DNA of 24,000 bases from Congzhengia sp. (GTDB taxonomy: Bacteria > Bacillota > Clostridia > UBA1381 > UBA9506): NCBI GenBank assembly GCA_045649085.1, contig JAZRPE010000040.1, positions 14,075-38,074 on the forward strand, in the 5' to 3' direction. Made by a program: the position numbers and the translations under genes. The notes beneath the pieces are model-generated. The model searched no databases, was not told the DNA's origin, and was given only the letters and a program-made list of their open reading frames with translations. Shown piece by piece: positions 776 to 22,871 of this stretch; the stretch's first letter is position 1, and every line of letters starts with the position of its first letter.

Positions 776-807
776 ACCGCTTCCTGCACGCTCTGGCAAA
801 ACCGTTG

Positions 808-2457
808 ATGTTGCCGGAGCGTGTAAGGAACTTTGTTAAAATTAAGTATGAGGAGCGGGTGCTCCAAAGGCCGTATATCGGCGATCAGCTTGATTATGAC
901 TTACTTTGCTGGAGGTCGAGCCGGGCAGTAGTAATTAAGGCTCCCACCGGTGCAGGAAAAACGTGGTTTGCAATCAACAAAATTATCAAACGTGCAAAAA
1001 AGCATAAAGAGAAGGTGTTGATTGTTATGAATCGCAGTCCGTTGAATCTTGCGTATAAAAAGGCAGTTGCAAAAATGGTAGAAAAAGAGAGTTGCTATAC
1101 AGACGAAGGATTGTTGCAGGCGCAGGAGTTTGGCAACGTATTTGTTGTAAACTATCAAGGTCTGGAACACTTTGTGAGGACACATAAGCACGTTGAATTT
1201 TCTTATGTAATATGCGACGAATGCCACTACTTTCTGCAAGACGCATCATTTACTGACTGCACCGGTACGGTGCTTGATATGATTCCCAAGGTATTTGAGT
1301 TTGCTGTAAGAATTTACATCAGTGCAACCATAGAAGAGGTTCTGCCCTTTATCACAAGGGCAGAACTGTATGATTGCAACGTGGATTTTGACGGAAATGT
1401 TTACTGGAAGGACCTGTTACTTGCACAGACCTTTACAGGGCAGTACCCCGTGCCGCTGGTTTACAGAATGGAGTCAGATTACAGTAAAATCAAGCTGCAA
1501 TTTTTTGAAGATACAGAGCTTTTAGCTGAACAACTTAAAGCAGAGCCTTATCAGGTGTTGGCATTTTGCGACACAAAGAAGGAATGCAAAAAGTTTGTTA
1601 AGGCTATAGATAGTGGAAGGGTAATTTATTCGGAGTATCTCCATGAACATCCTGAGGTGCTTAAAAGCCTTGTAGAAAACGAAGGGTTTTCCGGTAAGTG
1701 CCTTGCTGCTACAACTGTATTTTCCAACGGAAACAACATCAGCAGTAAAAATGTAAGGTCGGTAGTTATTACACTATTGGATCAGATTGAGATATTGCAG
1801 ATGGCAGGTCGCAGACGGCTGGATTACTCTGACCCGAACGATGGATTTACTCTGTATCTTAAAATTCCCAAATCAGGGCAAATAAGGCAGAAACTTCATT
1901 CCATATATGCCTTACAGGCAGAAATTGCAGAATGTAAGAAAAATCCTGTTTACCTTATGAGCATCATAAAAGACGGCACCGATGATATGACAGATTCAAT
2001 CCGCCGTGTTTTTGGAATCGACAGGATAACAAAGGATTACAAAATCAATTATCTCTGCGAGGACAAGCTGTATTCACAACAAAAGTATTTAGAATTTATT
2101 GATGCTCTCATAGATGAAAAAGGAGAGGAGGCATACTGCCGGATGATAGCGGAACTTTTTGGTAAAGCATTTGATGAAAGTATGCTCTTTAAAACAAGGG
2201 AAGACAGGAAGATGGAACTCTCGGAGTTTATAAATGGCTATGGATTTCCGTTGTCCTGCGAGGAATTTGAAATCTTCTGTGAAAAATTTACTGAAAAAAG
2301 AGTTCTTCTGTTTGGCAGGAGCGAATCGGATAATTTTGGTATAAACCGCAAAGTACCGGGGTTCCGGTCAATAAACAACCGATTAAAAGAGCTGGGGTTA
2401 GAAATAGAAATCGTAAGAGAAGGCGAAAAATATTATTTAAAAGAGGTATCAGAATGA
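808..2457 (+). CDS. SF2 DEAD/DEAH-box helicase
   Basis: The helicase motifs are visible: Walker A APTGAGKT, motif II ICDECH, motif III SAT (YISATIEE), motif V TTVFSNGNNI and motif VI QMAGRRR. The start is either TTG 805 or ATG 808. Confidence 0.85.
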   Translation: MLPERVRNFVKIKYEERVLQRPYIGDQLDYDLLCWRSSRAVVIKAPTGAGKTWFAINKIIKRAKKHKEKVLIVMNRSPLNLAYKKAVAKMVEKESCYTDEGLLQAQEFGNVFVVNYQGLEHFVRTHKHVEFSYVICDECHYFLQDASFTDCTGTVLDMIPKVFEFAVRIYISATIEEVLPFITRAELYDCNVDFDGNVYWKDLLLAQTFTGQYPVPLVYRMESDYSKIKLQFFEDTELLAEQLKAEPYQVLAFCDTKKECKKFVKAIDSGRVIYSEYLHEHPEVLKSLVENEGFSGKCLAATTVFSNGNNISSKNVRSVVITLLDQIEILQMAGRRRLDYSDPNDGFTLYLKIPKSGQIRQKLHSIYALQAEIAECKKNPVYLMSIIKDGTDDMTDSIRRVFGIDRITKDYKINYLCEDKLYSQQKYLEFIDALIDEKGEEAYCRMIAELFGKAFDESMLFKTREDRKMELSEFINGYGFPLSCEEFEIFCEKFTEKRVLLFGRSESDNFGINRKVPGFRSINNRLKELGLEIEIVREGEKYYLKEVSE

Positions 2458-2551
2458 AAAGTATAGATTTAATTTTAGAAGCAATTTATGAGATATTAAA
2501 TCATAAGAAATAGCTATAAAAGCTAAGTATAAAGCAAAGGAGGTGCAGAGC

Positions 2552-4081
2552 ATGGCCAAAATTTTAAAAGCGGTAGCCTATGCTAGATTTTCAAGTGATT
2601 TACAACGTGAAGAGTCTATTGATGCACAGGTTCGTGCTATAAAAGCTTTTGCAGATGCAAAGGGCTATGCTCTGCAAAAAGTTTATGCGGACCGCGGTAT
2701 CAGCGGGACCACTGATAACAGGCCTGAATTTCAGGCGATGATTGAAGATGTGAAGAATAGTGATATTTCTGCGGTAATTGTCCATAAATCTGACAGATTT
2801 GCAAGAAATCGTGCAGACAGTGCAATATATAGGCGTGAGCTTAAAAAGTATGGGGTACAGGTATTGTCTGTCACTGAGAATATAAATGACGATACGCCGG
2901 AGTCTATAATGTTAACTTCTGTCATTGAAGGAATGAATGAGTATTATTCCGCAAACCTCAGACGAGAGGTTATGAAAGGATTAAAGGAAAACGCTCTGTC
3001 CTGTCGGCATACGGGCGGTAAGCCTTGTCTTGGTTATGATGTAGATAAAAGCACAATGAAGCTTGTTAACAATGAATGGGAAGCTGAAGCAGTTAAACTG
3101 ATTTTTAAACTATATCTGGAGGGGCATGGTTATTCTCATATTATTAATGAACTTAACAAAAGAGGTTATAAAACTAAGAGGGGTGCGGCTTTTGGAAAAA
3201 ATAGTTTATACGAAATATTGCGTAATGAAAAATATACCGGAGTATATGTATATAATTTGTCAGCATCAAAAAATTCCGCAGGAAAATTTAACAGACATAA
3301 AAGCAAACCTGATGATGAAGTAATACGAATTGAAGGTGGTGTACCTCAAATAATACCTACAGAAGAGTTTCAAAAGGTACAACAAGTTATGAAATCAAGA
3401 CAGAGAAAAACCGCCGCCTTTAAAGCGAAACAGGAATATCTGTTGTCAGGTAAAATTATATGTAATGAATGTGGTTGTACCTATGCGGGTAATTCGCGAA
3501 AGGCGAATCCAACACATCCTCTATATGTTTCATATCGTTGCACTAAAAGAAATGGTAAAATAAAATGCAAAAATCCTGAAATCCAAAGGGATTTAATTGA
3601 ATCAATAGTTCAAAAGAAATTAGCAAGTAAGGTTTTTGATGAAAAGGTATTGCCTGAGGTTATCGGCAAATATAATGAGTTTGCTGCTTCAAAAAATACC
3701 GAGCTAATATCTTCCATTAATATGATTAAGGATAAAATTACTGAAGCAGAAAAAGGTATTGCAAATATAGTAAATGTAATTATGCAGACAGGTTCAGTGT
3801 CATTAACAGACAAGTTAAAAGAGTTGGAGAGTGATAAAGCAAAATTTGAACAGACATTGCAAGAAAAACAGATGGAATTATCTGAAATTTCCGTCAATGA
3901 AAAAGTCTTAAAGCGGGCTTTCAAAAAGGCTAAGAAAATGCTCGAATCTGGAACACTATCTAACAAAAAGGCAATTATTGATCGCTATGTAAAGCAAATT
4001 ATATTGGATAAGGATAAAATAGTAATAGAGTTTAATGTAACGGATACATATACAATTACAGAGGAAATAGAGCGTTCATAG
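2552..4081 (+). CDS. Large serine recombinase (resolvase/invertase N-domain, recombinase domain, zinc ribbon, coiled coil)
   Basis: The N-terminus AVAYARFSSDLQREESIDAQ carries the catalytic Ser motif, followed by VHKSDRFARN. A Cys cluster (CNECG...YRCTKR...KCKN) and a C-terminal coiled coil follow. The ATG at 2552 sits 8 nt after the RBS aaggagg; the track start GTG 2543 overlaps that RBS. Confidence 0.9.
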   Translation: MAKILKAVAYARFSSDLQREESIDAQVRAIKAFADAKGYALQKVYADRGISGTTDNRPEFQAMIEDVKNSDISAVIVHKSDRFARNRADSAIYRRELKKYGVQVLSVTENINDDTPESIMLTSVIEGMNEYYSANLRREVMKGLKENALSCRHTGGKPCLGYDVDKSTMKLVNNEWEAEAVKLIFKLYLEGHGYSHIINELNKRGYKTKRGAAFGKNSLYEILRNEKYTGVYVYNLSASKNSAGKFNRHKSKPDDEVIRIEGGVPQIIPTEEFQKVQQVMKSRQRKTAAFKAKQEYLLSGKIICNECGCTYAGNSRKANPTHPLYVSYRCTKRNGKIKCKNPEIQRDLIESIVQKKLASKVFDEKVLPEVIGKYNEFAASKNTELISSINMIKDKITEAEKGIANIVNVIMQTGSVSLTDKLKELESDKAKFEQTLQEKQMELSEISVNEKVLKRAFKKAKKMLESGTLSNKKAIIDRYVKQIILDKDKIVIEFNVTDTYTITEEIERS

Positions 4082-4104
4082 TCGTTAAAACTATTATTGA
4101 AAAG

Positions 4105-4140
4105 CAAAGAACACAGTGAAAATCACTGTGTTCTTTGTAT
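4105..4140 (+). terminator. Intrinsic terminator after the serine recombinase gene
   Basis: A perfect 15-bp stem caaagaacacagtga (4105-4119) / tcactgtgttctttg (4123-4137) with loop aaa and a T-rich 3' side. Confidence 0.7.
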
Positions 4141-4235
4141 CCTAGATTTGTATAATATCATGTCCCTAACTTGATATGTGTTTTGTTATGATGCTGTGCT
4201 TTATGTTACATTTATATTAAATTTTTGATAAAGCG

Positions 4236-4264
4236 TTGACATACGTGTTAATACGTGTTATAAT
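4236..4264 (+). promoter_or_regulatory. Consensus SigA promoter of hicA with a tandem 10-bp repeat in the spacer (candidate operator)
   Basis: ttgaca at 4236-4241, a 17-nt spacer, tataat at 4259-4264. The spacer consists of atacgtgtta repeated twice (4241-4250 and 4251-4260). Confidence 0.65.
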
Positions 4265-4328
4265 GTAATCGTAATATGGAAGCGGCATACTACTTATTAT
4301 AATATTTGAAGAAAGGAGAGCGTTGCCT

Positions 4329-4517
4329 ATGCCAATGAAACCCCGAGAAATGATAAAGCTATTGCGAGATAATGGATTTATCGAAGTATCGCAAAACGGT
4401 TCCCATAAAAAGATGTTTAGGGAAGAAACTAATACTACGGTTATTGTGCCGGTACATAGTAAGGAATTAAAAAAGAAAATTGAAAAAGCAATATTAAAGC
4501 AAGCGGGATTAAATTAA
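4329..4517 (+). CDS. hicA: HicA-family mRNA interferase toxin
   Basis: MKPREMIKLLRDNGFIEVSQNGSHKKM...VPVHSKELKKKIEKAILKQAGL matches the HicA pattern (GSH motif, C-terminal ILKQAGL). The ATG at 4329 lies 8 nt after the RBS aaaggagag. Confidence 0.9.
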   Translation: MPMKPREMIKLLRDNGFIEVSQNGSHKKMFREETNTTVIVPVHSKELKKKIEKAILKQAGLN

Positions 4518-4561
4518 AAATTGAATTAGAATAAGAATTAATAAGGATTTAGAGAACAAAT

Positions 4562-4612
4562 GGTTTTAGGAGCGGTTTGTGATAATTTGTTTGCAAACCG
4601 CATAACCTAAAA
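4562..4612 (+). other. Long imperfect hairpin in the hicA-hicB spacer
   Basis: The arms gttttagg-a-gcggtttg and caaaccgc-ataa-cctaaaac pair as two 8-bp helices around a 14-nt loop. The function is unknown; it could be a terminator, a processing site or a small RNA. Confidence 0.4.
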
Positions 4613-4724
4613 CATATTAGATATATATGTTTATTTGTTGTGCAATTTTTTAGGTTGTTTTTAATGAATTACTTTACACTTAGACCAAATATGTATGAAA
4701 TAAAATAAGATTGGAGATGTGAAA

Positions 4725-5123
4725 ATGAATAGAACTTATTATTATCCTGCAATATTTACTAAAGAAGATGTTGGCTTTTCTGTTAGTTTTCCTGACCTTC
4801 CTGGGTGTTTTACCCAGGGAGATACTATTGAAGAAGCTTATAAAATGTCTTCTTCCGCAATTGGATTATATGCACAAAATGAAGATGGTAAATTTGTTTT
4901 TCCGAATGCTAGTGCTCCTAATGATATTACATTAGAAAAAGATGAATTTTTAGTGCTTGTAGAGTTTAATCTTATTGAATACTTAAAAAACACAAGTGAC
5001 AAAGCAGTGAAGAAAACGTTAACTATTCCATCATGGCTTAATAATTTGGCAGAACAAAACAATGTGAATTTTTCCAATGTATTACAAAATGCACTCAAAG
5101 AATATTTGAATGTAAATAGCTAA
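4725..5123 (+). CDS. hicB: HicB-family antitoxin with C-terminal ribbon-helix-helix-like domain
   Basis: YYYPAIFTKEDVGFSVSFPDLPGCFTQGDTIEEA is the typical HicB N-domain. The C-terminal KKTLTIPSWLNNLAEQNNVNFSNVLQNALKEYL resembles an RHH DNA-binding domain. The ATG at 4725 follows the RBS ggaga. Confidence 0.85.
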   Translation: MNRTYYYPAIFTKEDVGFSVSFPDLPGCFTQGDTIEEAYKMSSSAIGLYAQNEDGKFVFPNASAPNDITLEKDEFLVLVEFNLIEYLKNTSDKAVKKTLTIPSWLNNLAEQNNVNFSNVLQNALKEYLNVNS

Positions 5124-5430: not shown

Positions 5431-6474
5431 TTATGCAGAAATCTTCTGCACATATTCTTGCCATTTTAGGACCGAATTACTTCTTCTCGTGTTGCTTAAA
5501 TGAGTGTATATATCTAATGTTGTTTTTATATCTTTGTGGCCGAGCCAGATCTGCGCTGTTTTGACGTCTATATTTGCATCAAACAGCATTGTGGCGTAAG
5601 AATGCCTTAACATATGTGGTGTAGCGGATACGCCTGCTTCGGCTTTATATTTATTCCATTTCCTTGTGATTTGCGAGTTGTCGAGCAATTCGCCCTCTTC
5701 TGTTTGGAATATATAATTATTTTTCTTTCGCTTTATAAGTTCGCCCATTAACAGGTCAGGCAACGGGAGCGTTCTGTATCCCGCATCGGTCTTTGGATGA
5801 TTCTTTATTTGCGGTTTATTTCCTATCCATTCTACAGTTTTTGAAACGGTAACTGTTTTGTTTTTATAGTCAATGTCTTTTGGAGTGATTGCAAATGCTT
5901 CGCCGCGCCGCAATCCAGTGTATAGTAAAAAAAGTGCAAAAAAACCAAAATATACATCCTTGTTCTCTTTGATTCTCTTTATATCTTCGTCTGATGCAGG
6001 TTGACGTTTTTCTCTTTTATTTGGGATGTTGATGGTTATGAACTGACAAGGATTTGAAGGAATTAGTTGCTCAATAAGCGCGTGTTTCATAATTAGGCTT
6101 AGTATAGAGAGCTTACCCTTTATAGTCTTCTTTGCATAACCTTTTTTCTCGTACATTGACACGAAGTTTTTGACATCTGTGGGAGTTATGTCCTGTACCA
6201 TTCTTCCTTCAAAAAATTTGATACATTCTCTCTGTGCAGGTCTATATGCTTTAAGAGAATTATTCTCGATTCTTCCGAAAGTTTCTTCGGCCCATTGTTC
6301 GGCGATTGTTTTAAAAGAATTTTTGTTTTCTGTTGTGCTTTCAATCTCAAGTATTTGCTTATTAAAATCTTTAACGGCTTCGCGTTCCGATTTTGCGTTT
6401 GAGTAAAAGTATTTTGATGTACCATCGGGGAGCTTTACTTTTTTTACCCAACGGCCATCTTTTCTTTGCTTCAT
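5431..6474 (-). CDS. int: Tyrosine recombinase / phage integrase
   Basis: The C-terminal catalytic region is HMLRHSYATMLFDANIDVKTAQIWLGHKDIKTTLDIYTHL (HxxR...Y), with an earlier GLRRGE Arg motif. The ATG at 6474 follows the RBS gaagg by 8 nt; the track start GTG 6483 abuts that RBS. Confidence 0.9.
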   Translation of the reverse strand: MKQRKDGRWVKKVKLPDGTSKYFYSNAKSEREAVKDFNKQILEIESTTENKNSFKTIAEQWAEETFGRIENNSLKAYRPAQRECIKFFEGRMVQDITPTDVKNFVSMYEKKGYAKKTIKGKLSILSLIMKHALIEQLIPSNPCQFITINIPNKREKRQPASDEDIKRIKENKDVYFGFFALFLLYTGLRRGEAFAITPKDIDYKNKTVTVSKTVEWIGNKPQIKNHPKTDAGYRTLPLPDLLMGELIKRKKNNYIFQTEEGELLDNSQITRKWNKYKAEAGVSATPHMLRHSYATMLFDANIDVKTAQIWLGHKDIKTTLDIYTHLSNTRRSNSVLKWQEYVQKISA

Positions 6475-6563
6475 GTATTGCACCTTCTTTTCTTAAATGG
6501 TAAACACAATAGTAGTCCTATAATTTTCTACTTTGTGTCGTTACCTAAGATGTCGATTAATTT

Positions 6564-17942: not shown

Positions 17943-18341
17943 ATGAATAAAGTTATACTTGTTGGCCGCTTAACCAAAGACCCCGAACTGCGTGCAACAA
18001 CATCAGGTGTATCGGTAGCAAGTTTTACCGTAGCCTGCGACAGACGATTTGTAAAGCAGGGCGAGGAAAGAAAAGCAGATTTTATAAACTGTATTGCCTG
18101 GCGTCAAAGTGGCGAGGCAATTTCAAGATATTTCAAAAAGGGAGACCGTATTGCCCTTGAAGGAAGTATTCAGGTAAGAGATTGGCAAGACAACGACGGC
18201 AAAAAACGCTATGCAACAGAAGTTGTTGTGGATGAGTGGGAATTTGCACAGAGTAAAAATGAAGGTGCACCTGCAGTGTCAAACACAGAAGCAGACCTTG
18301 ACGGATTTATGCCTGTTGACGATGAAGACCTTCCGTTCTGA
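17943..18341 (+). CDS. ssb: Single-stranded DNA-binding protein
   Basis: MNKVILVGRLTKDPELR...F is an OB-fold start. The acidic C-terminal tip is DDEDLPF. Confidence 0.92.
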   Translation: MNKVILVGRLTKDPELRATTSGVSVASFTVACDRRFVKQGEERKADFINCIAWRQSGEAISRYFKKGDRIALEGSIQVRDWQDNDGKKRYATEVVVDEWEFAQSKNEGAPAVSNTEADLDGFMPVDDEDLPF

Positions 18342-18352
18342 TGAGGTGCGAT

Positions 18353-19753
18353 ATGAGAGAATTATTTATAGATAACTTCGCCGGCGGTGGCGGTGCTTCT
18401 ACAGGAATAGAAGCGGCAATAAAAAGGTCTGTTGATATTGCCATAAACCACGACCCCGATGCGATTGCAATGCATAAGGCAAACCACCCTAACACGAAGC
18501 ATTATTGTGAGGATGTGTGGGAAGTATCTCCAAAGGAAGCCTGCGGAGATAACCCTGTGGCACTTGCCTGGTTCAGTCCTGATTGCAAACACTTTTCAAG
18601 AGCGAAAGGCGGAAAGCCTGTTGATAAAAACATAAGAGGTCTTGCGTGGGTTGCAATAAAATGGGCGTATGAAGTAAGACCGAGAGTGTTGATGCTTGAA
18701 AATGTACCTGAGATACAGACGTGGGGACCATTGGGAGAAGATAACAAACCAATAAAGGAAAGAGCCGGAGAAACATTCAGAGGTTTTATTGCAGTATTAT
18801 CAGACGGACTGTCTAAGGAACATCCGGCGTTTGCTGAAATGTGTTCGGCGCTGAATATTGACATTAACTCTGATATGGCAGACGAACTTTCAAAGGGTTT
18901 GGGATATAAAGTAGAGTTTAAGGAATTAGTATCTTGTGACTACGGCGCTCCAACGTCACGAAAGCGATTCTATATGATTGCAAGATGCGATGGTAAGAAG
19001 ATTGTGTGGCCGTCGGCAACACACGCCCAACGAGAGAGTTTATTTGTACATAGCGGACAATGCAAACCCTATATATCTGCTGCAGAGTGCATTGATTGGA
19101 CTATTCCCGGAAAGAGCATATTTGACAGAAAGAAACCGTTGTGTGAAAAAACAATGAGACGCATCGCAAAAGGATTTAAAAAATTCGTCTTAGATAATCC
19201 TGAACCGTATATTGTTGACGATAAATATGTTCCGTATTTGATACAGTATCACGATGAAACGAGTGAAGATGAGGTGCGCGGACAAAGTGTTCTAGACCCC
19301 ATAATGACTTTAGATACATCGAACAGATATGCTCTTATCGCCCCTTATATTGTTACTTTGAGAAATAATATGACAGGGCAGCAGGTAGAAGAACCTATAA
19401 GCACAATTACCTGCAAAGACCATCACGAAGTCGTGTATGCTTATTTGATTAAATATTATAGTGGCATCCTTGCAAGTGATGTAAGCAAACCGATAGATAC
19501 ATTAACTACAATGGATAGATTTGCTTTGATAACAGTTCTCGGGGAAAAATATTATGTTAAAGACATACTTATGCGATTTTTAGAACCACGAGAAATGTTT
19601 AAAATGACAGGGTTCCCGGCAGAGTACAAAATTGATTATGACATAGACGGAAATGTCATATCAAGAGAGAAAAAGGTTGCTAAGTGCGGAAACGCAGTAA
19701 CACCGCCCGTAGCTACGGCGTTGGTTAGAGCGAATCTGCCTGAATATTGTTAG
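18353..19753 (+). CDS. DNA (cytosine-5)-methyltransferase, orphan
   Basis: Motif I is DNFAGGGG, motif IV SPDCKHFS, motif VI LMLENV, motif VIII TSRKRFYMIA, motif IX EPREMFKMTGFP and motif X CGNAVTPPVA. No restriction endonuclease gene is adjacent. The ATG at 18353 follows the RBS gaggtg; ATG 18341 is the alternative. Confidence 0.9.
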   Translation: MRELFIDNFAGGGGASTGIEAAIKRSVDIAINHDPDAIAMHKANHPNTKHYCEDVWEVSPKEACGDNPVALAWFSPDCKHFSRAKGGKPVDKNIRGLAWVAIKWAYEVRPRVLMLENVPEIQTWGPLGEDNKPIKERAGETFRGFIAVLSDGLSKEHPAFAEMCSALNIDINSDMADELSKGLGYKVEFKELVSCDYGAPTSRKRFYMIARCDGKKIVWPSATHAQRESLFVHSGQCKPYISAAECIDWTIPGKSIFDRKKPLCEKTMRRIAKGFKKFVLDNPEPYIVDDKYVPYLIQYHDETSEDEVRGQSVLDPIMTLDTSNRYALIAPYIVTLRNNMTGQQVEEPISTITCKDHHEVVYAYLIKYYSGILASDVSKPIDTLTTMDRFALITVLGEKYYVKDILMRFLEPREMFKMTGFPAEYKIDYDIDGNVISREKKVAKCGNAVTPPVATALVRANLPEYC

Positions 19754-19763
19754 GAGTGATTAT

Positions 19764-19994
19764 ATGTCGCAATGTGAAAGAATTGTTCAGTACATAAATC
19801 AGCACGGAAGTATTACACCGTTAGAAGCGGTAAACGACTTGGGGTGTATGAGGCTTGCAAGTCGCATAACAGATTTAAAACAGCGTGGAGTTTCCATTAT
19901 AAGCGAATGGGAAGAAGGTAAGAACCGCCGCGGCGAAAAAACAAGGTACAAAAGATATTTTATATTAAATAATACAAAGGAGAAAACATCATGA
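19764..19994 (+). CDS. Small winged-helix DNA-binding protein
   Basis: ERIVQYINQHGSITPLEAVNDLGCMRLASRITDLKQRG fits the phage wHTH pattern. Its stop is ATGA-coupled to DGR target 1. Confidence 0.6.
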   Translation: MSQCERIVQYINQHGSITPLEAVNDLGCMRLASRITDLKQRGVSIISEWEEGKNRRGEKTRYKRYFILNNTKEKTS

Positions 19995-20599
19995 AAAACT
20001 ATTTAAGGTTAAACGGAAAAGACATTGAGTTGACGGATGCGCAGGTCGAGGACATTAAAAAGTCCTTCGGTCTTGGCTCAAAAGAATTGGGAAAGGTCGA
20101 TGTAGGTAAAACTGCAAGAATTGGTGAGTTTGAGTTTGTTGTGCTTGAGCACAGCGCAGAAACAACAGCGGTTATCTTAAAGGGCCTTTACAAAGAAAGC
20201 GAAGAGTTCGGCAAAAACAATAATTTTGACGGCTCTTATGCGGACAAGCACTGCAAGGAGTTCGAAAAGAAGTTTGCCAAAGTTATCGGTTCTGAAAACA
20301 TCATTGAGCACAAGGTAGATTTAACAGCTGATGATGGTTTGAAGTGTTATGGTACAGTTCGCCGCAAGGTTTCATTATTAACTACAGACCTTTATCGCAG
20401 ATATGTATACATATTAGACGAATACAATCCTGAAAAATGGTGGTGGCTTGCTACACCGCACAGCACACCCAAGCATTGTGGCTATAACTGGGTAAAATGC
20501 GTTGCGCCCTCGGCTTACTTGTACTACAACTTCTACTACGACTATTACGGCGTGCGTCCGTTTTGTATCTTGAAATCTTCTATCTTTGTATCAGAATAA
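19991..20599 (+). CDS. DGR variable target protein 1 (202 aa)
   Basis: The C-terminus WWWLATPHSTPKHCGYNWVKCVAPSAYLYYNFYYDYYGVRPFCIL contains VR1. The WW..(S/T)P ... GVRP pattern resembles C-type-lectin-fold/DUF1566-like DGR targets. It is a paralogue of target 2. No signal peptide or TM is visible. Confidence 0.85.
   Translation: MKNYLRLNGKDIELTDAQVEDIKKSFGLGSKELGKVDVGKTARIGEFEFVVLEHSAETTAVILKGLYKESEEFGKNNNFDGSYADKHCKEFEKKFAKVIGSENIIEHKVDLTADDGLKCYGTVRRKVSLLTTDLYRRYVYILDEYNPEKWWWLATPHSTPKHCGYNWVKCVAPSAYLYYNFYYDYYGVRPFCILKSSIFVSE
20498..20561 (+). repeat. DGR variable repeat VR1
   Basis: The sequence tgcgttgcgccctcggctTacttgTacTacaacTTctacTacGacTatTacggcgtgcgtccgt has 9 differences from TR, all at TR adenines (capitalised). 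Confidence 0.9.
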
Positions 20600-20619
20600 A
20601 TTAAAAAAGGAGCATAATT

Positions 20620-21144
20620 ATGAAAACATTAAAAGAAATTGGAACAGGAAAAACATTTAGAGTGGCAGACATTGAGTTTGTCAAGGTAAAGGAAACCGAC
20701 AAAGGCACGATAGTAGTTACAAAGGATTGTCTTTTTGATTCTACATTTGGTAGTGACAATAACCTGCATGAAAGCAAAATTTTAAAAAGACTGCAGGAAG
20801 AAATCTTACCTAAGATTGAAGAGGCTGTAGGAGCTGAAAATGTACTTGAATTTGAAACAGACCTTACAACTCTTGACGGATTAAAACCTTATGAACCTTT
20901 AAAGTCAAAAATCAGCTTACCGACATTAGACTTCTATCGCGAGAATGTGGCGGTATTCGATGAACATAAAATTGACGGTTGGTGGTGGTTGGCAACTCCT
21001 GAAAGCGCAAAGCCACACAGTAACCCTACTTGGATAATTTGCGTTGCGCCCTCGGCTAACTTGAACAACAACCTCTACTACGACAATAACGGCGTGCGTC
21101 CGATTTTGTTCTTTGTATCTAATATCTCTGTATCTGAGAAATAA
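20620..21144 (+). CDS. DGR variable target protein 2 (174 aa)
   Basis: The RBS aaaggag is present. The C-terminus WWWLATPESAKPHSNPTWIICVAPSANLNNNLYYDNNGVRPILFF contains VR2. No signal peptide or TM is visible. Confidence 0.85.
   Translation: MKTLKEIGTGKTFRVADIEFVKVKETDKGTIVVTKDCLFDSTFGSDNNLHESKILKRLQEEILPKIEEAVGAENVLEFETDLTTLDGLKPYEPLKSKISLPTLDFYRENVAVFDEHKIDGWWWLATPESAKPHSNPTWIICVAPSANLNNNLYYDNNGVRPILFFVSNISVSEK
21038..21102 (+). repeat. DGR variable repeat VR2
   Basis: The sequence tttgcgttgcgccctcggctaacttgaacaacaacCTctacTacGacaataacggcgtgcgtccg has 4 differences from TR, all at TR adenines. Confidence 0.9.
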
Positions 21145-21151
21145 CAGGGTT

Positions 21152-21178
21152 CCCACGCTGCGCAGTACGCAGTGTGGG
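21152..21178 (+). promoter_or_regulatory. GC-rich hairpin 50 nt downstream of VR2 (candidate DGR target-recognition hairpin)
   Basis: The arms cccacgctgcg (21152-21162) and cgcagtgtggg (21168-21178) form an 11-bp stem with one G-T pair and a 5-nt loop cagta. No U-tract follows. Confidence 0.5.
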
Positions 21179-21254
21179 AGAGAGGACGAACTACGAAATG
21201 AAAATGATATTTTCTCACGGGAAAATATCTAAGAAATGGAGTAAGTGAGGACGA

Positions 21255-21626
21255 ATGAATGATGCCGATTTAAAGGTAATTGGAAAGGCAAAAGAACTCG
21301 CAAAGCATACTTACATACTAACAACGAACGCAGACAGATTTCCTAAAAAGGTCCGCCATTCCCTGGTGGATAAAATGCAGATAAAGTGCCTCGAAATTTA
21401 TGAGGCACTCTTTGAAGCAAATCGCATAAACAATAAAACCCATAAGAACGAACGATGCGAAAGAATTACAGATGCAATTACATATTGTGATGAGCTGCAG
21501 TTCTTTATAGAGCTTTCTATGGACTTGGGATATGTGAAGGATAAATCTGCAGGTTATTGGTCGGGGTTGGTAACGGATGTAAAGCGTATGTCTATTGCCT
21601 GGAGAACAAGTGAAAGAAAACAATAA
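21255..21626 (+). CDS. avd: Avd-like accessory variability determinant (four-helix-bundle protein)
   Basis: A 123-aa helical, basic protein (KAKELAKHTY...FPKKVRHSLVDKMQIKCLEIYEALFEAN...). It sits between the targets and TR exactly as bavd does in the BPP-1 DGR. Confidence 0.8.
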   Translation: MNDADLKVIGKAKELAKHTYILTTNADRFPKKVRHSLVDKMQIKCLEIYEALFEANRINNKTHKNERCERITDAITYCDELQFFIELSMDLGYVKDKSAGYWSGLVTDVKRMSIAWRTSERKQ

Positions 21627-21654
21627 TAAAATTAGGTTGTATGTTGTATTTTTC

Positions 21655-21720
21655 TTTGCGTTGCGCCCTCGGCTAACTTGAACAACAACAACTACAACAA
21701 CAATAACGGCGTGCGTCCGT
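21655..21720 (+). repeat. DGR template repeat (TR)
   Basis: The sequence is tttgcgttgcgccctcggct AAC TTG AAC AAC AAC AAC TAC AAC AAC AAT AAC ggcgtgcgtccgt. It has 19 adenines, all confined to 21675-21706, and both flanks are A-free. Confidence 0.9.
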
Positions 21721-21830
21721 ATTGGTGGAATGTCAGACAGAGTAGGCACTATGCCCAAATCAGAACACCCCTAACAAAAGAACATACAACCTTTCCTCTT
21801 ATGAGGATAAACAAAAAGGACTGTTGCTGT

Positions 21831-22871
21831 ATGACCGACTTTGAAAAAGTTATTGATTTTAATAATATGTATCGAGCGTTCCGCAAATCAAAAAGCGGTA
21901 AAGGCTTTAAGAAAAGCTCTGCAAGGTTTAATGCTATGGCTTTAGACGGGATAAATACCCTGATAGAACAGTTAAGGTCGAGAACCTACACAATATCAGA
22001 GTACCACGAATTTAAGGTCTACGAACCAAAAGAGCGTGTAATTAAGACCACATCTTTTAAGGACAAGGTCGTGCAGCACAGTTTATGTGATAATGTATTA
22101 CTTCCCAGGATGCGTGAGATTTTTCTAAAAGATAATTGTGCCGGGCAAAAGGGAAAAGGTACCGACTTTGGCTTGGACCGATTAAGTGAGCAAATGAAAG
22201 CCTTTTATAAGCGGTACGGCACGAAAGGATATATCTTAAAATGCGATATTTCTAAGTTCTTTTATAACATCTCGCACGAGCAGTTAAAAGATATAGTCGA
22301 ATACTATTTCGGCTATGACGAGGGAATTTTGTGGCTCTGTAATCTGTTTATAGACAGTACAGAGGGCAAAGGCATACCGTTGGGAAATCAAATCAACCAG
22401 GGTTTGGCACTATTGTACCTTGACGGAATGGACAAGCTCATAACTAGTGAATTAGGTATCGAGTTCTACGGCAGGTATGCGGATGATTTTTATTTGATAC
22501 ACCAGGACAAAGAATATCTTAAGTATTGCCTGCAGGTTATAACGGAATTTCTTGAAACTCTTGACCTGAAGCTGAACGGCAAAACACAAATATTCCCAAT
22601 AAAGAACGGCGTGAATTACCTCGGTTTTCATACCTATATCACGGATACGGGGAAAGTAATACGCAAATTAAAGAATCAAAATAAACGCAATAAACAAAAG
22701 AAATACTTGAAGATGGCCCATCTTGTGGCAGAAGGTAGGCTCCCTATTGAAAAGTTTTACGCCTCATATAACGCCTGGCGTAATCATATCTCCCACGGGA
22801 ACTGTCACAATCTTGGCAGGGCGGTCGATAAGAAGGTAAGAGAAGTGCTGCGGGAGGAGCGTGAAAAATAA
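21831..22871 (+). CDS. DGR reverse transcriptase
   Basis: The RT motifs are LKCDISKFFYNI (motif A Asp), GIPLGNQINQGLALLYL (a variant of the DGR-type (I/L)GxxxSQ), GRYADDFYLIH (YADD) and VNYLGFH. The ATG at 21831 follows the RBS aaaaagga. The track ORF start 21678 lies inside TR. Confidence 0.92.
   Translation: MTDFEKVIDFNNMYRAFRKSKSGKGFKKSSARFNAMALDGINTLIEQLRSRTYTISEYHEFKVYEPKERVIKTTSFKDKVVQHSLCDNVLLPRMREIFLKDNCAGQKGKGTDFGLDRLSEQMKAFYKRYGTKGYILKCDISKFFYNISHEQLKDIVEYYFGYDEGILWLCNLFIDSTEGKGIPLGNQINQGLALLYLDGMDKLITSELGIEFYGRYADDFYLIHQDKEYLKYCLQVITEFLETLDLKLNGKTQIFPIKNGVNYLGFHTYITDTGKVIRKLKNQNKRNKQKKYLKMAHLVAEGRLPIEKFYASYNAWRNHISHGNCHNLGRAVDKKVREVLREEREK

Follow-up and report, generated by a model that had tools for sequence, protein, structure and literature searches.

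A compact diversity-generating retroelement with two tandem DUF6273 target genes in a probable prophage of gut Clostridia

A 24,000-nucleotide stretch of DNA from Congzhengia sp. (GenBank assembly GCA_045649085.1, contig JAZRPE010000040.1, positions 14,075 to 38,074 of the forward strand), referred to as the window, very probably carries the complete diversity-generating retroelement (DGR) of a temperate phage that is integrated in this gut Clostridia genome. A complete DGR had been proposed in an initial annotation made from the nucleotide letters alone, and all of its parts were found: a reverse transcriptase (RT) of the DGR type, the accessory variability determinant Avd, an intergenic template repeat (TR) beside the RT gene, two variable repeats (VR1 and VR2), each in frame at the 3′ end of a target gene, and a GC-rich 3′ boundary. 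Positions are given in window coordinates, and all features of the element lie on the plus strand.

The repeats were located with a repeat finder, which returned a single family with three direct copies in the window (20496–20567, 21038–21109, and 21655–21726). A base-by-base comparison of TR and VRs, anchored on the common GCGTTGCGCCCTCGGCT, delimited the copies of this 63–66 nt sequence as TR (21655–21720), VR1 (20498–20561), and VR2 (21038–21102), in agreement with the coordinates of the initial annotation. The TR is intergenic, lies directly upstream of the RT gene, and consists of a 5′ flank (21655–21674), a mutagenic core of 33 nt (21675–21707; AAC TTG AAC AAC AAC AAC TAC AAC AAC AAT AAC), and a GC-rich 3′ element of 12 nt (21708–21719). 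VR1 (from 20498) is homologous to the TR from position 21657 onwards and differs from it at nine positions (TR 21675, 21681, 21684, 21690, 21691, 21696, 21699, 21702, and 21705); VR2 is homologous to TR 21655–21719 and differs at four (TR 21690, 21691, 21696, and 21699). As had been claimed, all 13 of these 13 differences fall on TR adenines, the TR 66-mer being composed of 19 A and 47 non-A bases, and no mismatch at a non-adenine position appeared on re-alignment. The hypergeometric probability of such placement is 3.9e-6 for VR1 and 6.5e-3 for VR2. When every TR adenine was replaced by N, the resulting pattern matched these three sites and no others, with 0 mismatches; 100 shuffles gave 0 matches. 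The flanks of the repeats contain no A and are identical across TR, VR1, and VR2; the target proteins are merely 42 % identical, and the earlier remark that identical VR flanks sit in otherwise diverged target genes was thus borne out.

In both target open reading frames (ORFs) the TR adenines occupy, by arithmetic from the coordinates, the first two positions of nine AAY codons and the second position of one TAC codon. The number of variants per target, recomputed as 15^9×4=1.5e11, equals the figure given earlier, and stop codons are unreachable. The corresponding peptides are YLYYNFYYDYY for VR1 and NLNNNLYYDNN for VR2, and the TR would give NLNNNNYNNNN. The description of the TR as unusually short was retained in part only. 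Mutagenic cores of ~30–100 bp and GC-rich 3′ flanks of usually 20–40 bp have been published (PMC5758913), so that the 33-nt core lies at the lower end of what has been published, with the 12-nt 3′ flank below the usual length; the shortness is, however, common to the whole clade (>100 loci). The TR is short but with precedent, and its shortness is a trait of the clade.

RT-based scans for relatives yielded 66 loci in metagenome-assembled genomes (MAGs) of gut Clostridia, 80 in metagenomes, and 78 on viral contigs of IMG/VR. Among the MAG relatives were those of Congzhengia (identities of 95, 89, and 88 %) and of Oscillospiraceae. Each locus was compared as a whole, unbiased and without gaps, with the 420 nt that precede its RT. 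A common layout, namely two VR-bearing genes about 540–610 nt apart, avd, a TR of 63–78 nt, a spacer of ~110 nt, and the RT gene, is shared by about 130 loci of gut MAGs, metagenomes, and IMG/VR phages. It was seen in almost every locus whose RT was at least 52 % identical and whose upstream sequence was long enough. Exactly two VRs were present in 112 of the 131 loci with enough upstream sequence. RTs of less than 50 % identity were accompanied by longer TRs (about 104–125 nt) and by targets located downstream. The closest relatives are merely about 88–95 % identical to the element; searches of viral and metagenome contigs with the exact flank pattern for a near-identical copy, exact-protein look-ups of RT, Avd, and target 1, and megablast against a phage collection all returned nothing.

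The adenine restriction recurred throughout the family. In 215 distinct TR/VR pairs, 2272 of 4358 TR adenines differed (52 %) versus 61 of 9714 other bases (C 0.44, G 0.93, and T 0.60 %), with a spectrum of 56 % A>G, 36 % A>T, and 7.5 % A>C. At informative non-A sites, that is, where related TRs differ from one another, the VR carried the base of its own TR 99.3 % of the time. Alleles were then compared among elements from different samples that have identical TRs and RT genes at least 97 % identical: 398 of 501 A columns were polymorphic, as opposed to 16 of 949 non-A columns. A single TR allele was accompanied by 19 and 15 distinct VR alleles. Because the VRs of these elements differ between samples almost only at adenines, the clade was concluded to be diversifying in nature.

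Some peculiarities of the window pair and of individual relatives were recorded alongside. With its four adenine changes, VR2 has fewer than any other of 173 family pairs that could be compared (median 11; at the family rate, P is about 0.006). Each of the four positions differs from the TR in VR1 too, with the same base at three of them, giving [F/L]-Y-Y-D in both proteins, and A>T accounts for 10 of the 13 changes in the window versus 36 % in the family (P 0.003). Family-wide positional selection was ruled out as the source of the common [F/L]-Y-Y-D, since codons 6, 8, and 9 have no such preference in the 173 family pairs. The overlap between VR1 and VR2 and the excess of A>T may reflect gene conversion between the VRs, a cDNA lineage common to both, or selection that acts in this phage specifically.

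Two phage contigs (L226, 3969–5113; L227, 5001–6146) encode the same target pair (202 and 173 aa, 86 % identical to target 1 of the window); neither avd nor an RT was called in the downstream 3–5 kb of the fetched loci, and their VR1 still shows diversification at adenines when set against the family TR. On the basis of these loci they are classed as orphan targets, the cassette having been lost or lying elsewhere. In L188 (9830–9904; IMGVR_UViG_3300045988_035166) diversification extends to the copy that stands in the place of the TR (GGTTTCGTCAGCCGCGATAGC... for GGTAACATCAACAACAATAAC...), so that most of the TR/VR mismatches are not at adenines. Mutagenised cDNA seems to have replaced this TR, by which the element would inactivate itself.

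The copy in the window, called apparently active in the initial annotation, is probably active, as good indirect evidence suggests. The RT gene, avd, and both target ORFs are intact, with neither frameshift nor stop codon. It is unlikely, although to be reckoned with, that a complete-looking DGR has become inactive, so that the TR/VR differences would record past retrohoming by an element now silent or decaying in a fixed prophage. Such a history would suit the nearly TR-like VR2, the least diversified of the 173 family pairs, and there are precedents: over half of the candidate DGRs in a published survey were dropped as non-functional (PMC5758913), L188 has a corrupted TR, and L226 and L227 keep their targets with no adjacent cassette. 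The intact genes and the presence of the catalytic YADD speak against it, as do the good conservation of the spacer and the clear diversification of sister elements. The VR flanks are, moreover, 100 % identical to the TR, lineage-specific non-A bases included. At non-A positions the window TR has GGCT where its nearest relatives (L001, L147, L225, and L026) have GGGT, and TTG where these have ATC or ATT; since the window-specific bases are found in both VRs, transfer from TR to VR must have taken place after the split from the nearest relatives (about 5–15 % nucleotide divergence).

The repeats might alternatively have arisen by duplication and gene conversion of the two paralogous genes, together with a stray third copy and with no part played by an RT, the adenine restriction then being due to chance or to selection at the codon level. 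The targets are indeed paralogous, their C-terminal tails remain alike beyond the VR (81 % over 107 nt), and the four positions changed in VR2 form a subset of those changed in VR1. This explanation was nevertheless given a negligible probability and is effectively refuted: the adenine restriction has a P of about 1e-6 in the window and is repeated in 215 independent pairs (52 % of A versus <1 % of other bases), the third copy is intergenic, rich in Asn codons, and always directly upstream of a DGR-type RT, and gene conversion gives no reason for the non-coding copy being, in every case, the invariant one.

The RT gene (21831–22871) encodes 346 aa from ATG 21831, which lies 110 nt past the TR; a YADD RT at about this distance had been annotated. 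The best match of the protein in the PDB was the RT from the DGR in Bordetella phage BPP-1 (8ub7; E 7.2e-33, 117.6 bits, residues 5–329), followed by a group II maturase RT (E 5.4e-13, 52 bits) and a chain named "retron-type RT" (E 2.8e-7, 33 bits). The BPP-1 enzyme thus came first by a wide margin. The protein also matched Pfam RVT_1 (E 1.8e-15) and phrog_1423 (E 3e-102). In the alignment with the BPP-1 RT (bRT), YADD stands opposite YMDD and LGNQINQ opposite IGSLTSQ, and an Arg and a Leu are found opposite Arg74 and Ile181, respectively. These two positions of bRT are important for adenine mutagenesis. No DGR-RT family was among the NCBIfam matches, which consisted solely of far-sub-threshold group II, DRT, and retron models, the best being a group II RT (91 bits, cut-off 300), Drt3a, and a retron RT. 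That an RT of another class (group II intron, retron, or Abi/DRT defence) merely lies beside unrelated repeats, as these sub-cut-off matches might suggest, is scarcely credible in view of the full-length PDB match to the BPP-1 enzyme, the length of 346 aa with neither maturase nor endonuclease extension, the Avd gene upstream, and an Rfam search of the whole window at gathering thresholds, which returned no family and hence neither a group II intron nor a retron non-coding RNA. By homology the RT is of the DGR type, and not of the group II, retron, or Abi/DRT type.

The start of this gene deserves a remark. When ORFs are delimited mechanically, the RT ORF begins at TTG 21678 within the TR; the likely start is ATG 21831, with AAAAAGGA just before it. 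Gene callers that pick the long ORF would mask the intergenic nature of the TR and of the spacer.

The avd gene (21255–21626, 123 aa) lies between VR2 and the TR, where an Avd-like gene of this length had been predicted, and its product matched phrog_3206 ("Avd protein of DGR") with an E value of 5.7e-24. Matches below the respective cut-offs were obtained with NCBIfam DivGenRetAVD (E 2.4e-10; 40.7 bits, cut-off 80), Pfam bAvd (E 3.2e-6; 28 bits, cut-off 40), and 23S_rRNA_IVP (E 3.9e-7). A sequence search of the PDB with Avd gave no match.

The 110 nt between TR and RT gene (21721–21830) are presumed to form the spacer (Sp) part of the DGR RNA. The spacer is 92.7–97.2 % identical to those of the five closest relatives versus 81.8–93.3 % for the RT gene and 78.6–91.1 % for the target genes. 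Folded as a single sequence, TR plus spacer did not exceed shuffles in stability (z −0.08), and structure became visible solely through comparative analysis of an alignment of 51 sequences. In the consensus structure 94 % of the cells are paired, versus 22–37 % when the partners were slid by 1–3 columns; nine pairs show compensatory changes, and the observed covariation score was reached by 0 of 500 shuffles. The structure includes a long-range helix between UGCGU at the 5′ edge of the TR and ACGCA in the spacer, a GGUG/CAUC helix that begins right after the TR (12–17 compensatory changes per pair), and a small GGC/GCC hairpin with an invariant loop within the conserved block CAGAGUAGGC...GCCGAAAUCAG. 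The DGR RNA of BPP-1 requires a structured spacer, and by analogy the conserved, covarying spacer found here fits such a role.

At the 3′ boundary, all three copies share the GC-rich GGCGTGCGTCCG, directly followed by TATTGG in the TR, TTTTGT in VR1, and ATTTTG in VR2. A putative initiation of mutagenic homing (IMH) element was accordingly assigned to each VR: that of VR1 (20549–20580) is composed of GGCGTGCGTCCG (20549–20560) followed by TTTTGTATC..., where it diverges from the TR, and that of VR2 (21091–21122) of GGCGTGCGTCCG (21091–21102) followed by ATTTTGTTC.... The function of the former is proposed by analogy with the IMH of BPP-1 (PMC5758913), and that of the latter is likewise putative. 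The contrast between TR and VR hexamers downstream of the GC-rich element recurs across the relatives, as would be expected of an IMH*/IMH pair, a role that is again putative. If the homology is stretched by 4–5 nt beyond the GC-rich element, TATTG of the TR faces TTTTG of VR1, which gives a tenth A-to-T difference; recurring as it does in the relatives, it has the appearance of a fixed difference between IMH* and IMH, not of a product of mutagenesis.

A GC-rich inverted repeat downstream of the IMH occurs in only about 34 % of DGRs (PMC5758913) and is therefore not strictly defining. No conserved hairpin was found after the VRs of the window (fold z after VR1 +1.3). A perfect 12-bp hairpin (21151–21180; DNA z −3.7, no T tract) lies 48 nt past the VR2 boundary, in a 110-nt intergenic segment (21145–21254) that separates target 2 from avd and also holds a second inverted repeat, GATATTTTC...GAAAATATC. 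This segment is 95 % conserved in L225 and has no match in L147 and L026; in L001, the start of avd is separated from VR2 by about 50 nt, too little to accommodate it. The segment has the look of an insertion, or of a regulatory or terminator element specific to the lineage, and not of a core part of the DGR. The hairpin was ruled out as a DGR cruciform because of its distance of 48 nt from VR2, the lack of a counterpart after VR1, and the absence of the segment from L001, L147, and L026.

Target gene 1 (19991–20599) encodes a DUF6273-type variable protein of 202 aa with no Pfam match outside its C-terminal region; target gene 2 (20620–21144, 174 aa) is its paralogue (42 % aa identity) and lacks the first ~30 residues. 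VR1 and VR2 lie in frame at the 3′ ends of targets 1 and 2, respectively. Pfam DUF6273 was matched by the C-terminal ~50 residues (target 1, E 7.3e-5, residues 149–196; target 2, E 5.9e-4) with scores of 23.1 and 20.2 bits, slightly under the cut-off of 23.5. Both proteins matched phrog_9958 (E 5e-34 and 1e-31), and many of the 1678 database homologues of target 1 carry a precomputed PF19789 match. An AlphaFold2 model of target 1 had a pLDDT of 77.8, falling below 50 in the VR loop; its best matches were DUF6273 phage proteins in BFVD (E 2e-5, TMq 0.63), and nothing significant was found in the PDB. Taken together, these matches identify both targets as DUF6273 variable proteins with the VR at the C-terminal end of the domain. 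DUF6273 has been described as a C-type-lectin-like domain, the C-terminal end of which is diversified by DGRs, often in two proteins per phage (PMC10743442, PMC11792537, bioRxiv 10.1101/2024.10.15.618418). By analogy, the target proteins are presumed to bind ligands or receptors.

According to the BPP-1 paradigm, diversification would proceed as follows: a transcript would cover the 3′ end of avd, the TR (66 nt), and the spacer (110 nt); it would fold by means of the conserved spacer helices and be bound by an RT–Avd complex; the RT would copy the TR into cDNA with misincorporation opposite the 19 template adenines; and the cDNA would replace the homologous 63–66 nt at the 3′ end of either of the tandem paralogous genes. 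Directionality would be conferred by the GC-rich GGCGTGCGTCCG and the sequence following it (TATTGG in the TR versus TTTTGT and ATTTTG in the VRs). The outcome would be the randomisation of ten codons in the distal DUF6273 (C-type-lectin-like) domain of each of two small proteins.

The gene order of BPP-1 (mtd-avd-TR-brt), to which the initial annotation had likened the element, is found here as target with 3′ VR, avd, TR, spacer, and RT. The two elements further share an RT homologous over its full length, Avd, differences restricted to adenines, TR codons rich in AAC, and a GC-rich 3′ element beyond which TR and VR diverge in an IMH/IMH*-like manner. They differ in the targets, which are two in tandem here (174–202 aa, DUF6273, upstream of packaging genes) and a single one, the tail-fibre protein Mtd, in BPP-1, and in the RT motifs, with YMDD and IGSLTSQ in bRT as opposed to YADD and LGNQINQ. 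The TR of BPP-1 is 134 nt long versus 66 nt here. Its GC element measures 14 bp within a 34-bp IMH (PMC5758913), whereas that of the window measures 12 nt and no conserved hairpin directly follows the VRs.

Gut-phage DGRs with two DUF6273 targets are known from the nd4/nd12 "tentaclin" phages (PMC10743442), Toutatisvirus (bioRxiv 10.1101/2024.10.15.618418), and the Faecalibacterium prophages Lelie and CP11 (PMC11792537). In these, as here, one TR diversifies the DUF6273 (C-lec-like) C-terminal ends of two proteins; a small single-domain DUF6273 target occurs there too (nd4_tgt2), and phages with both targets and no DGR have been reported as well, which matches L226 and L227. Unlike here, where avd is directly preceded by two small targets that are adjacent paralogues, one target of the published DGRs is large and has Ig-like domains (tentaclin or Hoc-like), and in Toutatisvirus the large target can be 17 kb away from the cassette. 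With the virus-restricted gut-phage DGR clades 1, 4, and 6 (PMC8144416) the element shares phage encoding, human or animal gut origin, phages that infect Firmicutes, and at least 75 % of mismatches at adenines, a likeness drawn from these features. The architecture is the standard avd-TR-RT cassette preceded by two targets; DGRs with several targets, targets of the DUF6273 type, and DGR-less target pairs have all been published, and the element belongs to a large, already recognised kind of gut-phage DGR, of which it represents a compact and abundant lineage. The current understanding of DGRs is left unchanged by it.

The target pair is encoded between replication/methylase genes and late regulator/terminase genes. 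As a speculation with only a slim chance of being correct, the clade might constitute a distinct minimal DGR design (short TR, ~33-nt window of mutagenesis, 12-nt GC boundary, compact spacer RNA) serving two tandem stand-alone DUF6273 paralogues outside the tail module. The targets would then perhaps be not classical tail receptor-binding proteins but paired soluble or detachable binders (adaptors, capsid decoration, or proteins expressed by the lysogen), and the partly common pattern of VR1 and VR2 would perhaps reflect coupled diversification.

Members of the clade are frequent among the gut phages of humans and animals (>100 loci recovered). DGR detection in one published pipeline used a minimum alignment of 90 nt (PMC11792537); the TR/VR repeat (63–72 nt) is shorter than this threshold, and the clade may therefore be under-counted. 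The ligands of the paired small lectin-like targets bear on the adaptation of gut phages to their hosts, and the small natural scaffold (66-nt TR, 110-nt spacer, 346-aa RT, and 123-aa Avd) could be of interest for the engineering of DGR-based mutagenesis.

The DGR lies in a prophage with genes for a tyrosine integrase (5431–6483, minus strand), an ImmA-like peptidase, a helix-turn-helix (HTH) repressor, RecT, a DnaB_2 replication protein, and a single-stranded DNA-binding protein. Upstream of the targets are located genes for a C5 cytosine DNA methyltransferase (18341–19753, 470 aa) and, immediately before them, a small HTH_39 winged-helix protein (19764–19994). Small ORFs and then a DUF1492 late regulator follow on the 3′ side of the DGR, and in L225 the terminase follows directly. 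From these surrounding genes and the position of the terminase in L225, the targets were placed just upstream of the packaging module and not in the tail module. At the position of the methylase, L225 has an unrelated ORF of 313 aa, so that this slot is variable between related phages. Genes for a ResIII/DEAD helicase (805–2457), a large serine recombinase (2543–4081), and a HicB-like antitoxin (4719–5123) precede the prophage integrase; together (805–5123) they may belong to a second mobile element that abuts the attachment site of the prophage.

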